NCBI GenBank assembly: GCA_013360215.1
Contig: JABWCP010000014.1
Span: forward strand, 1 to 64,000
Direction: 5' to 3'
Length of the DNA stretch: 64,000 nucleotides
From: a bacterium
Lineage (GTDB): Bacteria > CLD3 > SB21
Positions 48,307-55,925 of the stretch are shown here, one piece after another. Positions within the stretch are counted from its first letter, which is position 1. Each line of letters opens with the position of its first letter. The notes beneath the pieces are model-generated. The model saw only the letters and a program-made list of their open reading frames with translations. It made no database searches and was not told the DNA's origin. Both the position numbers and the translations under genes were made by a program.

Positions 48307-48431
48307 AAATGATCGTTTGTTAGTAGTCTATGAAATATCCGGTCTATTTAAACTCATAACTATAAATAACTGCAAATCATTTCCTCAGCACAAAAAGTAC
48401 TCAAAAGATCATTCTTTGGTGAGTACAAACT

Positions 48432-50948
48432 TCATACTATCTCACACTTTTTAGCTAAAACATCGGCTTCAACATATTTGTATTTTTTCTTTTCAATTCT
48501 TCCATCAGGATACTTTACTTCGACAATATCGTTTCTGCCAAATTTTTTAGAAGTAAGTAATAACATGAAAATCTCGTGTGAGTTTTTTATTTGAAGCAAC
48601 TGATTCTTTATTGTTTGGATTCCTTTTTCATCGATTACTGATGTTTTTTTTCTGCTTGAATTCTCCAGTAATTCCAACGCATGGTCGGCGTACAACATGG
48701 ACTTTTTCCCATCTCGTAATGAAAAATACAAGTTTGACATCCAATAATAAATAATTAACGATTCAAACTTTGTTTCATCGTCAATAGTCTCTTTAAGTTT
48801 AAGTTCAATTATTTTGGCTATGCTAAGCGCCTTATTTATCTCTGAACTATCTGACAAACTCTTGATTGCTACTGCGAATAAATATATATCGCTCGGATCA
48901 ATAAACGCATTCCCACTAAACAATTCCACATACTTATTAAAGTGTACGTTATCTGTCAAATTTGCCAGATCAATAAGGCATATTTCTTTAGTCGCCTTAT
49001 ACAACAACGTTTCATTTGTCTCATCTAAATTGTTTACTAAGTATTTGAGAATTTCGTTTCTCTTTAGCTTGGACAATTTACTTATAGAGTATATTATTTC
49101 AGGTTTAGTTATATCCTTCAAAAAATTCTTGTTTGAGTAGTCTAAAAGTAAAGAAAAGTTGTCTAAATTATCTTTGTCGAAAGCTAACTCCAAATACAGC
49201 AAGAGATTGTTTTTATTAAATCCAATTGGATGCGAATCACTTTCGATCTTCAGAATTGAACTACTAAGGATAGTTTTAAAAATATCGTCTTTTATAGAAA
49301 CATCAGTTTGTTGAGAAATAACATATTTTTGATATTTTAAAAAAAGAGAATCTGAAACATTACAAAACTCAAGAGCTTTGTTGATTTGCTCTAAAGCCGA
49401 TTCTACATCTTCTTTTTTTTTATATATAACTGCCTGGTAATATAGAGATAGAGATCTTATCTTATTAAGGTATTCCTTTTTTTCTCCGCTTGCTTTATAT
49501 GTCGAACTAAAGAGCTTTTCAAGTAAGTTGAGTGCCTGATTTTGATCATCAATAGAAATAGCAAGATTTAACAGTCCAATGTGATATGCACGATTGTGAT
49601 TCTCACCTTTTATGTACTCTTCTAAGATAGATATACCTTCGTTTTTTTCTCCAACAGCTATTTTACACACACCTAAATAGGGTTTGTAATCTAATACGAA
49701 TGGTTCTTCAGAGAAACCATCACTAAGAATTTGCATTGCTTTTTTATAATTTTTTACATTAAAATATGATAGGCCTAGGAAATATCTATTAGACTCTAAA
49801 TCTGTGTTCGATAGTGAGTCTTGATCTACACTTTCAAAAATCTCTATAGCTTCATGATAACTTTCATTAGAATACTTTATTAATCCATCTATATGAGTAT
49901 TATCTTTAATCGATGTCAACCATTCTTCTGAAAGACTTTCTTCAATAATTTTGTTTTTGATTCTAATTTCTCCTTCAAAATTAGAACTTATTATTCCGAA
50001 CAAATAGAGTTTACTTTTAATCTCATCAGTAAACTCCTCAGGCCTACCTTTGCGAAGAGCAATTAACGCGTTTTTTAACTGCTTATTGTTCTTAATTAGC
50101 TCTCGAATGTGATCTATCGGGGAGACATCAAAAAAAGTTAAATATTTTTTTTTAATTAAGTCTTCAATAAGATCAACAGTTACAGAACGTCCTTCTATCA
50201 CAAGACTTTCCACGTCTGAACAAATATCAAATGTCAGTCTTGGGTTACCGTTTGCCCACTTATAGATTTCGTTTGAAATTAAAGTTGATATTTGTAATCC
50301 ACTTTTTGATATAAAATCATCATGTTCAGATTTTGTAAAATCATCTAAATATATTTTTTCGCCAATATTAAACGGTGATTTATTTTTATCCTTTATCAAC
50401 TCCGTAGGCTCAACAACACCAGAAAGTACATAAGTTAATCTTTCAAATTCAGGGAAATTTGTTCTTGAAAAATAAGTACTTCTTATTTGAGCAAATATAT
50501 TGTCAGAGTACGAAATGCTTTTAAGAGCATCGATTTCATCTAAAATTATAACTAATTCACAATTAATTTTATTTAGAATTAACTTTAGACAACGATAATA
50601 TTCGCTATGTGGAGAAAGTGATTTTCTCCTAATTTGATCTATGTCGTTTTCAATATTCCCAATAACGCCGAGATTGGACTCAACAATGATATTAATAATA
50701 TTCCTATAACAATCGACTTCGTTATCATATAAATTTGATAAATCAATATAAGCAAATAACCTCTTTTCGTTTTCAAGAGTACCCTTGGCATGAAATAGTA
50801 AGTTTGTTTTACCCATTTGTCTTGCCACCAAAACGTACCCCGGCCTTTGCATCTCTTCAATTATATTTTTCAACTGAAGATCGGCGTTTCGTTCAACGTA
50901 TAAATGGGGTGGAATTTTTGTATATTTTTTTAAAACTTTTTCTTTCAT
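48432..50948 (-). CDS. AAA_35-type (STAND-like) ATPase with TPR repeats; candidate defence sensor
   Basis: YVERNAD, Walker A ARQMGKT, Walker B ILDEID, SPFNIG, W.NGNP.LT; TPR-like helices; about 30% GC. Confidence 0.8.
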   Translation of the reverse strand: MKEKVLKKYTKIPPHLYVERNADLQLKNIIEEMQRPGYVLVARQMGKTNLLFHAKGTLENEKRLFAYIDLSNLYDNEVDCYRNIINIIVESNLGVIGNIENDIDQIRRKSLSPHSEYYRCLKLILNKINCELVIILDEIDALKSISYSDNIFAQIRSTYFSRTNFPEFERLTYVLSGVVEPTELIKDKNKSPFNIGEKIYLDDFTKSEHDDFISKSGLQISTLISNEIYKWANGNPRLTFDICSDVESLVIEGRSVTVDLIEDLIKKKYLTFFDVSPIDHIRELIKNNKQLKNALIALRKGRPEEFTDEIKSKLYLFGIISSNFEGEIRIKNKIIEESLSEEWLTSIKDNTHIDGLIKYSNESYHEAIEIFESVDQDSLSNTDLESNRYFLGLSYFNVKNYKKAMQILSDGFSEEPFVLDYKPYLGVCKIAVGEKNEGISILEEYIKGENHNRAYHIGLLNLAISIDDQNQALNLLEKLFSSTYKASGEKKEYLNKIRSLSLYYQAVIYKKKEDVESALEQINKALEFCNVSDSLFLKYQKYVISQQTDVSIKDDIFKTILSSSILKIESDSHPIGFNKNNLLLYLELAFDKDNLDNFSLLLDYSNKNFLKDITKPEIIYSISKLSKLKRNEILKYLVNNLDETNETLLYKATKEICLIDLANLTDNVHFNKYVELFSGNAFIDPSDIYLFAVAIKSLSDSSEINKALSIAKIIELKLKETIDDETKFESLIIYYWMSNLYFSLRDGKKSMLYADHALELLENSSRKKTSVIDEKGIQTIKNQLLQIKNSHEIFMLLLTSKKFGRNDIVEVKYPDGRIEKKKYKYVEADVLAKKCEIV

Positions 50949-52294
50949 TCTATTATTTCTTGATTTATTTGTTTGATTATTGAATCAATAATTTCCGCAT
51001 TTAATACTTCCGAACTAACGACTCTTCTAAGAATTGCTTTCAATCTTCTTGGTGAACAACTAGAGGCCTCGATTATTTTACATTTAAATGTGTCTAGGTT
51101 TAATCGTAATGCGTCCTGAATTAAACAAAAAAGCAACTCAATGCTTTCGTTCCATCCGTTATTACAGTTTATATATTGAAAAAAATCAGATGCTTTTGAC
51201 CAATTCTTAATTAAGATAGATGGATCTGCAATGGTAGATATTACAAACTTTAAACTATTATCTGTTTTTTTATTACCATAGTAGTTTACTAAACTTGTTA
51301 GATCATCTGATATTTTCCTAACAAGAGTTATATCAATTAACGGTAACTCATCTATTACTATTACTTTTCGTTCTCTGTTTACTTCGGCCAGAAGCTGAAC
51401 TATCTGTTTTATCACGTTCTGTTCCAATTGATTTCGTTCTTTGGAATACTTGTCTTCAATTCTACAAAGAACTTCTTCTAAAACGTCGTTTGACGTTCTG
51501 ATATTTACAGGGCTAAGGTCGCAGAAACAGTAATCAATATCTGAAATCAACAAATTTCGATTTATTAACGTTGTTTTCCCAACTCCCGATTTTCCGAAAA
51601 CCCATATATTATTTATGCTCAGAAATTTTATAAATTCGTCGTCTATTTTCCTTTTTAAATAAAAAGGTTCGCTTTTTTGGGAATAGCTATTAAATAGGAT
51701 CGTTTCCGAATCAGGTTTTGATCTTCTTTTTAAGATGTAAGTATCCGATTCCTTTGTTTGTGTAGCACCACAAATAGTTTGATGCATTTCCTGAATTCTA
51801 AGTGAATCTTCTATCCTGAAAACTGTATTATAAAGATCCTTCTCTTTAAGTAGATTGATTAGTTCATTTCCATTTATCAGTTTAATGAATTCATCTGTTT
51901 TACTATGCTCAACAATTTTCTCACTCTTCCACTTCTCCCACCAACGCGCTTGATCAATATCTAAAACCGATGGAATACATAAAATCCAACTTTTAAGTTC
52001 GAAATTATCGGATTCTCTCGCGGTATCGAATGACTTTCTGATTTGTTGTTTTTGACTATCGGAAAAACTTTCCAAGAAAAACTTACATTGAACTACTGTT
52101 ATTGGTTCTATTCCTATTTTCCCAATAAAAACATCAATCCCTCCATCTCCATGTTTTACTTCAACCTGACTTACGACCTGATTGGAATACATTTTTCTAA
52201 ATAAGTTCTCACAAGCAATTTCAAATGCTTTCCTTGCGCCCTCAATATTCCCATGTAGCGCTTTAAAGTCACTCCAATCTCTATTCATTTTCAT
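50945..52294 (-). CDS. Restriction-endonuclease-fold (Mrr-like) domain fused to a P-loop ATPase; candidate defence effector
   Basis: FE...GDGGID...VQCK nuclease motif; YLKRKID, GKSGVGKT, VIDE; ATGA overlap with the downstream gene. Confidence 0.8.
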   Translation of the reverse strand: MKMNRDWSDFKALHGNIEGARKAFEIACENLFRKMYSNQVVSQVEVKHGDGGIDVFIGKIGIEPITVVQCKFFLESFSDSQKQQIRKSFDTARESDNFELKSWILCIPSVLDIDQARWWEKWKSEKIVEHSKTDEFIKLINGNELINLLKEKDLYNTVFRIEDSLRIQEMHQTICGATQTKESDTYILKRRSKPDSETILFNSYSQKSEPFYLKRKIDDEFIKFLSINNIWVFGKSGVGKTTLINRNLLISDIDYCFCDLSPVNIRTSNDVLEEVLCRIEDKYSKERNQLEQNVIKQIVQLLAEVNRERKVIVIDELPLIDITLVRKISDDLTSLVNYYGNKKTDNSLKFVISTIADPSILIKNWSKASDFFQYINCNNGWNESIELLFCLIQDALRLNLDTFKCKIIEASSCSPRRLKAILRRVVSSEVLNAEIIDSIIKQINQEIIE

Positions 52295-52455
52295 TTACCC
52301 AAAATGTCGTTAAAAGATGATGATTCTAAGGTTGGTTTAGAAATGCACAATAGCATAATGTATATACTATTTCAGTAGTCATAATATAATTAAATTTATC
52401 AATCCCAAACAGGAATCAATAATAATTATACATAATTTCCATATGTAAGATATAA

Positions 52456-52485
52456 AAAAAGCCGTTTCATATTGAAGCGGCTTTT
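52456..52485 (-). terminator. Terminator downstream of tmRNA
   Basis: AAAAAGCCGTTTCA-TAT-TGAAGCGGCTTTT. Confidence 0.7.
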
Positions 52486-52493
52486 AGAATTCG

Positions 52494-52854
52494 TGGAGAC
52501 GACGGGAATTGAACCCGTGTCCGAATATAAGTTCCTAAGGGCATCTACATGCGTAGGACTGTTTTGGTTTTTAACCGGCTCATAAAAAACGTCCAAAAAG
52601 CAAACCGGCGAGCTCGATAGTATTTCGCGTCAGACCTCCGAGCATTGGCCCTTCGCTAGTCGATCAAAAATGACATCTCAGCTAACTCCGATCAACGGGA
52701 GATGGCCGAAACGGACTGCAGGAAATTAATCCTTAGGCAGCCAACGCGTATGCGTTATTGTTGAGTATTGGTTTCCGCTTATTTTACGCGCACACAGAAA
52801 AAGCGCGGCATGCGACCCAAAGCACCCTATACCCGTCGAATCCAGTTCGTCCCC
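52494..52854 (-). ncRNA. ssrA: tmRNA
   Basis: 5' GGGGACGAACTGGATTCGACGGG, 3' GGACACGGGTTCAATTCCCGTCGTCTCCA; tag frame ending AYALAA* (stop 52733-52735); 361 nt. Confidence 0.96.
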
Positions 52855-54335: not shown

Positions 54336-55595
54336 CTATTGTTTTACGTTTCCATTCAAATCCAACTTCAAAAGATAAATATCGGTCGAATTGGAGTCCG
54401 TAAAAGTATATCCCGCACTGTAGATGGAATTTCTTATCACTTCCACCCCCATACCTTCATCATCCAACGCATCTCCATAATGTTTACTCCAAACCGCAGA
54501 ACCCTGCGCTGTAAATCGCGCTACCCACATTTGATATCTCGGCCCGACAAAGCGATCATAAAAACGTCCGCTTACAATATAGTCACCGTTGCTCAATCGA
54601 GAGAGCGCATGCGGACGAAGAATAGGGAAAGCATCTTCACGAAACTGTTCTCTGTATTTAGTTTGCATTATTATATTACCATCTAAGTCCACCCGGACAA
54701 ACCAAAAATCCGTGTGACCGTAATGAGGGAACGACAATAATGAACTCGCTGCTATTACAATATGCCCGGAGCTTTCAAAAGCCAAAGCTCGAGCCACATC
54801 ACGATTTGGAATAAGCCCTGTAGCAGAATCAATCAAACTATGGTATGTTTTTAACCATGTGGTTTGACCAAGATTGTTCATTTTGATCAAAAACGCATCA
54901 CTATAGCTACTATAAGGGGTATTCTGTATCGTCTGTCCACCAATGAAAATATCGTCGGCTGGTGTGATAAGAATATCTTTGGGTTCTATAGGAATGTCAG
55001 AAGTCACCGATTCTTGCCAAATTAATTTCCCATCGTCGCTGATTCTAAATACCAAAACATGGCCATCTTCCTGCAAAACCGTTTTCTCGTATGCAACGCC
55101 TGTAACCGATTCATCCGTACCCATATCCAGAGCAACACCATATGTACTGCTAGGACCTTCGACTTCGTATGTCCAAACAAGATTTCCGTCGGGCGACAAC
55201 TTTCCTACGACCGCATTCGTATCAGCGCTGGATCTACAGATGGTTCCAATGATATAAATATAACCTTCCTCGTCAACAACAGCGTCTGTCAATTCATCAA
55301 AATAATTCCCGCCCAAGGTTTTTGCCCATACGCTTTTCATGTTTTTATTGAAAAGTACGAGATATAAATCATATTGCCCTCTCAGGCTATTGGTGCGCCC
55401 CCCGATAAAGATTCCTCCCTCCGGCGTGGCGGCTACGACGCTGGCTTGTTCGGCACCTACAAGACCAAACGTACTGGCAAATTCACCGGAATTATTAACC
55501 GTAGAAACTGACTCGCACGAAACGGTTAAGAAGATTAAAAATAAATAGAGAAAATAAAAATCATCACATTGCATAGATAGAAGAGATTTGAACAT
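54336..55595 (-). CDS. Lipoprotein with beta-propeller repeats
   Basis: TVSC lipobox; repeated D.(Y/W)(L/F).K...G...W.K..G motifs. Confidence 0.75.
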   Translation of the reverse strand: MFKSLLSMQCDDFYFLYLFLIFLTVSCESVSTVNNSGEFASTFGLVGAEQASVVAATPEGGIFIGGRTNSLRGQYDLYLVLFNKNMKSVWAKTLGGNYFDELTDAVVDEEGYIYIIGTICRSSADTNAVVGKLSPDGNLVWTYEVEGPSSTYGVALDMGTDESVTGVAYEKTVLQEDGHVLVFRISDDGKLIWQESVTSDIPIEPKDILITPADDIFIGGQTIQNTPYSSYSDAFLIKMNNLGQTTWLKTYHSLIDSATGLIPNRDVARALAFESSGHIVIAASSLLSFPHYGHTDFWFVRVDLDGNIIMQTKYREQFREDAFPILRPHALSRLSNGDYIVSGRFYDRFVGPRYQMWVARFTAQGSAVWSKHYGDALDDEGMGVEVIRNSIYSAGYTFTDSNSTDIYLLKLDLNGNVKQ

Positions 55596-55851: not shown

Positions 55852-55852
55852 G

Positions 55853-55925
55853 TGCGTCCACAAGGAATCGAACCTTGAACCTAATGATTAAGAGTCATTT
55901 GCTCTGCCAATTGAGCTATGGACGC
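55853..55925 (-). tRNA. tRNA-Lys(CTT)
   Basis: GCGTCCATAGCTCAATTGGCAGAGCAAATGACTCTTAATCATTAGGTTCAAGGTTCGATTCCTTGTGGACGCA; cloverleaf, anticodon CTT, CCA not encoded. Confidence 0.96.

Follow-up and report, generated by a model that had tools for sequence, protein, structure and literature searches.

A candidate two-gene anti-phage system that pairs an effector-bearing NTPase with an AAA_35 NTPase carrying TPR-like repeats

Our analysis concerns a pair of adjacent genes, here called A and B, in a 64,000-nt stretch of bacterial DNA (the window; positions 1 to 64,000 of the forward strand of contig JABWCP010000014.1, assembly GCA_013360215.1, GTDB lineage Bacteria; CLD3; SB21). Protein A carries an Mrr/LmuA-type nuclease head on a short nucleoside triphosphatase (NTPase), and protein B carries an array of TPR-like repeats on an NTPase of the AAA_35 family. 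Taken together, the data support the pair well as a candidate defence system, the function itself being a prediction from sequence. We lean towards a horizontally acquired anti-phage system in which an Avs/NLR-like receptor is divided between the two NTPase proteins, and the pair probably belongs to a sizeable family that has no name. The original prediction for this locus had likewise placed sensor and effector on two NTPase partners, a division that the strict pairing of the genes, the domains of their products and the swapping of effector heads, all set out below, support. To our knowledge, the bacterial STAND/NLR-like receptors described so far hold sensing, switching and killing on one self-assembling chain.

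Strict pairing of A and B

A scan with the alignment of A, covering one genome per species, returned 71 loci, 20 of which hold a near-full-length A and 51 the nuclease head alone or the head with part of the NTPase. In all 18 assessable loci of the first kind (the remaining two are cut by contig ends), the gene immediately downstream of A, on its own strand, is B; none of the 51 has a B. Among 401 genomes of one family, a full-length B was found in four, with the NTPase module of A adjacent in the same four; among 401 genomes of the phylum to which that family belongs, an A-type NTPase was found in four, each time with a B-type gene no more than about 10 nt downstream. Two of the four genomes that carry only the effector part were checked, and neither has a B-type NTPase. 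Obligate pairing, which the original prediction had left to be checked, is therefore what we find, on the strength of the 18 loci and of both 401-genome samples. The pair is also rare, at about 1% of the sampled genomes, and scattered, with members in Bacteroidota, Acidobacteriota, Desulfobacteraceae and Proteobacteria. A comparison of neighbouring genes found no third gene conserved at the pair loci.

Two individual loci may be mentioned here. In a metagenome-assembled genome (MAG) of a proteobacterium (L017:2416-4958, + strand), B appears as two open reading frames (ORFs) of 608 and 244 aa, matched by tblastn in two pieces; a frameshift or a fault of assembly may be the cause. Immediately upstream of this locus is a HigB/HigA pair. 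In one genome of the family sample (G365:C22:156741-157484), the NTPase of A sits in a 303-aa open frame adjoining an intact B, and this copy of A may be truncated.

Domain content and a predicted contact between the two NTPases

The head of A is of the Mrr type: Mrr_cat matches residues 22-87 at E 1.5e-4 and 22.3 bits, above the Pfam cut-off of 21, and the conserved D ... (E/Q)xK residues are present, from which catalysis is predicted. Across an alignment of 29 homologues of A, E25, D50, D54, Q69 and K71 are invariant, and the PADLOC model of LmuA (PDLC03851) covers residues 10-153 at E 3e-22. Past a poorly conserved linker (residues 176-191) that is modelled with low confidence, the NTPase is matched by AAA_22 over residues 230-343 (E 1.3e-8) and more weakly by ATPase_2 and NB-ARC (Pfam); its Walker A motif GxxGxGKT (K240, T241), its Walker B residues D315 and E316, and R416 are invariant in the same alignment. 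The chain ends just past the NTPase lid, at residue 449, and holds no repeat or sensor region. For the AlphaFold (AF2) model of A (predicted local distance difference test, pLDDT, 83), the best solved match found by Foldseek is Avs4 (8dgf, E 7.4e-8), with further matches to 2fna (an archaeal ATPase_2 protein), CED-4, ORC, Avs5, Avs3 and the ZAR1 resistosome, while a profile search of PDB sequences gave a weak match to Cdc6. Homologues of A number 201, the best 120 listed being 45-59% identical to it (its own record excluded); they begin at M3 and are about 437 aa long.

B is a member of AAA_35 (PF14516), whose profile matches residues 14-239 at E 4e-19 and 69 bits against a Pfam cut-off of 27. 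G46, K47 and T48 of Walker A and D137 and E138 of Walker B are invariant, and the NTPase also carries R156 and R162. In the ESM Atlas, every structural neighbour of this NTPase is an AAA_35 protein whose C-terminal sensor is of another kind. TPR/ANAPC3 matches (Pfam) span residues 361-528, the repeat array is all-helical in the AF2 model (pLDDT 84.3 for B), and a profile search of PDB sequences returned TPR proteins only. Behind a low-confidence linker, the model places a C-terminal domain of two strands (808-812 and 818-822) and a helix (823-831), in which N806, V811, K822, K824, D829 and C835 are invariant; the consensus of residues 800-838, KKYGRND-V-VKY-DG-...-C, matched no family. Mean column conservation over 32 homologues is 0.79 in the NTPase, 0.67 in the C-terminal domain and lowest, 0.54, in the repeats. 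A conserved NTPase with variable repeats is the pattern that would be expected of a diversifying sensor mounted on a constant switch. Members of the B family are about 845 aa long, with 43-58% identity among the best 120 listed. In both proteins, the domains named originally (an Mrr-like E...D...QxK nuclease and a P-loop ATPase in A, an AAA_35-type ATPase and a TPR array in B) are those that we recover.

The two NTPases appear to be kin. Each carries the motif Y-x-x-R-x-x-D, invariant in its family (Y212, R215 and D218 in A; Y17, R20 and D23 in B). The original prediction had singled out this shared motif, which we now see as part of a wider homology: a profile-profile alignment of the two NTPases extends over 153 columns (probability 73%, E 3.2e-5) and takes in the motif, a 'DLS' strand, Walker B and a stretch past sensor 1. 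These comparisons argue, with moderate force, that the two domains are related beyond the P-loop.

A model of the complex, built from full-length A and residues 1-350 of B with our own alignments as input, scored 0.66 (0.63-0.67 over three runs) against 0.01 for the best control; the score mark is reached by 116 of 157 solved complexes and by 2 of 215 mismatched pairs, a calibration that holds roughly in this setting. The runs have at least 89% of their contacts in common, and the pLDDT of the partner is at least 83. On the side of A, the predicted interface comprises S236, G237 and T241 of the P-loop, D315 and E316 of Walker B, the invariant CDLSP strand and R416; on the side of B, it comprises N150-N164 (with R156 and R162) and P181-K198, which are the two most conserved stretches of that protein. 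Positions conserved at 90% or more account for 15 of the 32 interface positions in A versus 45 of 222 elsewhere, and for 24 of 34 versus 158 of 316 in B. The predicted geometry is the one that lets adjacent AAA+ or STAND subunits complete one another's ATP sites. The model thus supports binding of A to B through an NTPase-NTPase contact, and lends weight to the earlier suggestion that the two proteins may co-oligomerise.

A chassis for swapped effectors and its genomic setting

The NTPase module of A is found with many other heads. A search of 1.84 billion representatives placed it in 328 representative clusters, and in the 150 clusters listed it is nearly always C-terminal, preceded by N-terminal regions of varied length. 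Among 96 A-type proteins scanned, the heads were PNP_UDP_1 nucleosidase (29), LmuA-type (PADLOC PDLC03851 in 20 and PDLC03855 in 18), DUF676 esterase (16) and Trypsin_2 (9), and more rarely Metallophos (3), Peptidase_C14, a caspase family (2), and protein kinase (1). A nucleosidase-headed relative (A'; MTA/SAH nucleosidase, E 1.3e-8) has its own partner, B', directly behind it. Judged by these domain matches, the module is a chassis for swapped effectors.

The nuclease head is just as mobile. It occurs elsewhere at 45-64% identity to A: as LmuA in LmuA + MC6 + DUF2326 operons (Lamassu/ABC-3C), on single-chain NACHT/nSTAND proteins some 1450 aa long, and fused to TPRs or beta-propellers. This assortment identifies it, at the level of sequence, as a module shuffled between known defence systems. 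A further two-gene arrangement may be present at one locus (L041:912-6541, + strand), where the same head belongs to a 461-aa protein and the next protein, of 1415 aa, combines WD40 propellers with an AAA domain at its C-terminus.

In two IMG/VR prophage contigs, a distant A'-B' pair stands between integrase and CI/CII-type genes. A gene of metallo-beta-lactamase fold lies directly upstream of A'-B' on one of them (L086:5607-6521, + strand); it matches PADLOC LmuA PDLC03854 (2e-60), RTasMBL and Avs1a, and hints that this variant comprises three genes and that its nuclease is activated by a protease. This arrangement recalls the nuclease-protease pairs that the accessible text of PMC12799240 describes for AVAST, Hachiman and Lamassu.

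Six of 19 related loci have known defence genes no more than four genes away from the pair: type I restriction-modification (R-M) systems in two, and Old/GajA-like, PtuA + AbiEii, TmtA/Ppl/PDC-S01 and SNF2/PDC-S02 genes in the others. The defence neighbourhood that the original prediction had proposed to look for is therefore borne out in part, by these six loci and by the two variants in prophage integrase/repressor hot spots; it is not seen at the other 13 of the 19 loci, which have no clear defence neighbour, in a count that has no background control. In a Mucilaginibacter MAG (L005:14110-15870, - strand), a second, different AAA_35 protein (587 aa, with its NTPase C-terminal) is encoded on the opposite strand just past the A-B pair and is followed by a type I R-M system; its N-terminal part weakly matches PADLOC DUF626_VIII.

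In the window, the pair forms a small, foreign two-gene island (Table 1), as judged from its low GC content, its border at the transfer-messenger RNA (tmRNA) gene, its housekeeping flanks and the failure to find A or B in any of the 19 other genomes searched from the same phylum. GC content is 0.29-0.32 across 48.5-52.5 kb versus 0.41-0.48 on either flank, the ATG of A lies 196 nt past the 3' end of the tmRNA as placed by Rfam, and the junction reads ...GAA TGA / ATG AAA..., the TGA of A and the ATG of B sharing ATGA; the junction is equally tight in related loci. The GC content of about 30%, the place right after the tmRNA and the translational coupling had all been read correctly at the outset. 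A and B are each single-copy in the source genome. The ORFs on one flank encode GDPD, DUF6958, acyltransferase, ABC-F and M3 peptidase proteins, and a DHO_dh-like gene lies on the other. No direct repeat matching the tmRNA 3' end turned up when the island's far border was searched. The tmRNA flanks of 11 relatives hold no match to any of the window's five flanking proteins; synteny is therefore lost, and an empty site could not be shown. The tmRNA itself is full-length by Rfam and unreported by ARAGORN in the window. Further along, a 419-aa ORF (54336-55595, - strand) adjoins tRNA-Lys(CTT) (55852-55925) and has no Pfam match (E ≤ 0.001) and no PADLOC match.

Table 1. Positions of the A-B pair, its domains and its border features in the window.
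Feature	Position	Strand	Basis
Gene A, effector plus NTPase protein (449 aa)	50945..52294	-	ORF and translation
Gene B, NTPase plus repeat-sensor protein (838 aa; sensor presumed)	48432..50948	-	ORF and translation
ATGA overlap of A stop codon and B start codon	50945..50948	-	Sequence
tmRNA gene (ssrA), 3' end bordering the island	52491..52854	-	Rfam RF00023, 148.6 bits
Low-GC island (~0.30), A and B its sole content	48330..52470		Composition; approximate borders
A residues 3-175, Mrr/LmuA-type PD-(D/E)xK nuclease head	51770..52288	-	Pfam, PADLOC, invariant E25, D50, D54, Q69-x-K71
A residues 196-449, sensor-less STAND/ORC-like P-loop NTPase	50948..51709	-	AAA_22, ATPase_2 and NB-ARC matches; Foldseek
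B residues 1-345, AAA_35 NTPase with helical and winged-helix-like lid	49914..50948	-	Pfam, conservation, Atlas neighbours
B residues 350-795, TPR-like helical repeat array, presumed sensor	48564..49901	-	TPR/ANAPC3, model
B residues 800-838, conserved beta-hairpin and helix C-terminal domain	48435..48551	-	Model, alignment

Known systems, alternatives and a proposed mechanism

Within the resources compared, no named system fits the pair, in keeping with what had been supposed from the start. PADLOC v2.0.0, which we take to include models for PD-Lambda-4, gave no two-gene match: at E ≤ 1 it returned nothing for B and, for A, solely LmuA and mad8, both through the head. NCBIfam holds no match above its cut-offs to either protein. 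The literature we found contains no description of the pair, DefenseFinder and Supplementary Tables 1-5 of PMC13581612 lying outside the comparison. That 2026 census of 589 STAND clades reports, in its main text, no two-gene, operon or hetero-oligomer STAND system, and six homologue accessions had no match in seven of its supplementary files (MOESM3 and MOESM4 stood outside the search; PMC13581612). Mrr-like effectors are mentioned, and no such pair, in the accessible text of Kaur et al., 2020 (PMC7159879). The pair may already be catalogued in a resource outside this comparison.

The closest likeness is to Avs4 and Avs2, in which an Mrr-type nuclease head is followed by a STAND-type NTPase and a TPR-like sensor belongs to the system; the solved structure of Avs4 (8dgf) is the best match of the A model, and the PADLOC models of Avs2 match the same head in relatives of A. 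Like an Avs protein, A has an N-terminal defence effector beside a STAND-type NTPase. In Avs, however, effector, NTPase and C-terminal repeats share one chain with a single NTPase, whereas here the repeats are on a second protein with its own, different NTPase (AAA_35), and the Avs models of PADLOC match nothing of A past the head and nothing of B. We also considered a simple split Avs, with the second gene a detached sensor tail, and rejected it since B has a complete and conserved NTPase.

Resemblance to Lamassu is confined to the head. Residues 10-153 of A match LmuA, and true LmuA operons carry this head at about 50% identity, but the pair lacks any LmuB/SMC-like or LmuC/MC protein, and outside the head A consists of a P-loop NTPase. 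Lamassu was therefore rejected: the match is limited to the head, and genuine Lamassu operons with this head are arranged differently.

In gene order, the pair resembles Avs8 (PD-lambda-4), described in the accessible text of PMC12236752 as a two-gene operon whose first protein is an Mrr nuclease with a P-loop NTPase. According to the same text, however, Avs8A acts alone, and Avs8B is dispensable, of unknown family and unrelated (PMC12236752). AVAST type 1 comes to mind through the Avs1a/LmuA-type gene upstream of A' on the prophage contig described above and through the trypsin-like head on 9 of the 96 A-type proteins. Its protease is fused, as far as the accessible text of PMC12799240 goes, to a full Avs with its own sensor, whereas the protease here would sit on a short, sensor-less NTPase that pairs with B.

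As for B, its NTPase falls among the AAA_35 (PF14516) proteins, which are mostly cyanobacterial and have WD40, CHASE2, GAF or TPR tails. The plasmid matches of B and its Atlas neighbours are such proteins with other tails; a full-length B was not found on plasmids, where the best match spans 53% of it at 39% identity. Those proteins differ from B in being listed as single proteins, with no effector-NTPase partner annotated.

A parallel in logic is eukaryotic. In NAIP-NLRC4 and in plant sensor/helper NLR pairs, a ligand-binding protein of the nucleotide-binding oligomerisation domain (NOD) type is thought to nucleate an oligomer of an effector-bearing NOD protein. The same logic is proposed here for B and A, for which a contact of NOD-NOD type is predicted. 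Kinship in sequence goes no further than the P-loop fold class, however, and the effector here is an enzyme as opposed to a death-fold adaptor.

How such a pair might work otherwise deserves comment. The proteins could form a constant complex, akin to a toxin/antitoxin guard, in which the NTPase of B restrains the nuclease of A until a phage interferes with B (by degrading it, or through an inhibitor that binds the repeats) and frees A. A complex of fixed ratio would suit the strict pairing and the translational coupling, A has no sensor of its own, and the complex is predicted without any trigger. We nevertheless consider this unlikely, since the contact that we predict has the form classically seen in active AAA+ proteins, where arginines point at a neighbour's ATP site, and does not occlude the nuclease, and since the Walker sites are strictly conserved in both proteins, which a passive inhibitor would not need. 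In addition, solved Avs and NLR relatives are described as activated by oligomerisation in the accessible text of two reports (PMC13581612; PMC12799240).

The effectors found on the NTPase module of A also include enzymes that do not act on DNA (nucleosidase, esterase, protease, caspase and kinase), which points to a logic of sensor and effector and not to a DNA motor. It is thus very unlikely that the pair works as an NTP-driven restriction system of McrBC/type IV kind, with the two NTPases as a motor that acts on modified or foreign DNA, the Mrr-type head as the cutting part and the TPR array as a mere scaffold, even though the head falls within a family of restriction nucleases (Mrr), 'restriction endonuclease' is the annotation of one homologue and type I R-M neighbours occur in 2 of 19 loci. 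Scans of A and B against Pfam, PADLOC and NCBIfam matched no McrB/GTPase or methylase family, and the fold neighbours of A are of STAND/ORC types. Finally, we give hardly any credence to a pair without an immune role, of STAND type and MalT-like or ORC/Cdc6-like, that would signal or regulate on behalf of its mobile element: many cyanobacterial AAA_35 proteins do bear signalling domains (CHASE2, GAF, WD40) and most pair loci adjoin housekeeping genes, but there is no DNA-binding output domain, the output being a conserved nuclease or another toxic enzyme, and such a role sits poorly with the patchy occurrence in about 1% of genomes, the island of low GC and the positions in prophage hot spots.

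Several points weigh against the reading that we favour, that of a divided Avs/NLR-like receptor. The literature we found holds no paper testing a member of the pair. The flanks of the window consist of housekeeping-type genes with no PADLOC match and no integrase, and the 13 related loci without a clear defence neighbour leave a count that, lacking a background control, is weak on its own. At the probability given above, the two NTPases show no more than moderate homology. The packing of AAA+ and STAND proteins is stereotyped, and the score of the complex may in part reflect likeness to solved oligomers; the calibration of that score is rough on account of our own alignments, and the model took in residues 1-350 of B, without the repeats and the C-terminal domain.

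With these points in mind, we can offer a rough proposal for how a divided receptor of this kind would act. B would do the sensing: binding of a phage protein, the presumed trigger, to its variable TPR-like array would switch on the AAA_35 NTPase. A would be the executioner, a nuclease head on a short NTPase that has no sensor of its own. In the order of events that we propose, activated B would then dock its conserved, arginine-bearing face onto the nucleotide-binding face of A and nucleate a mixed NTPase oligomer, whose stoichiometry we can only infer, and this oligomer would gather and activate the nuclease heads. The gathered heads would presumably cut DNA and stop the infection, in a response that may be abortive, the cell probably being lost.

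If all of these elements are put together, the pair could be the first bacterial immune receptor made of two different NOD-type NTPases, in which the arginine face of B, an AAA_35-TPR sensor, enters the ATP site of the sensor-less effector-NTPase A and nucleates a mixed oligomer. In prokaryotes it would correspond to NAIP-NLRC4 and to the sensor/helper NLR pairs of plants, and it would be one member of a large unnamed family that spans the 328 clusters and their nuclease, nucleosidase, esterase, protease and caspase heads. In this full form we hold the reading as tentative, a little short of probable.

Should it prove true, the division of labour known from NAIP-NLRC4 and from plant sensor/helper NLRs would also have arisen in bacteria, and the pair would offer a small system in which to study the activation of one NOD protein by another. 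With its interchangeable heads, the NTPase of A would give the known repertoire of defence systems a new chassis. The variable repeats of B, for their part, may serve as receptors for phage proteins that are yet to be identified.

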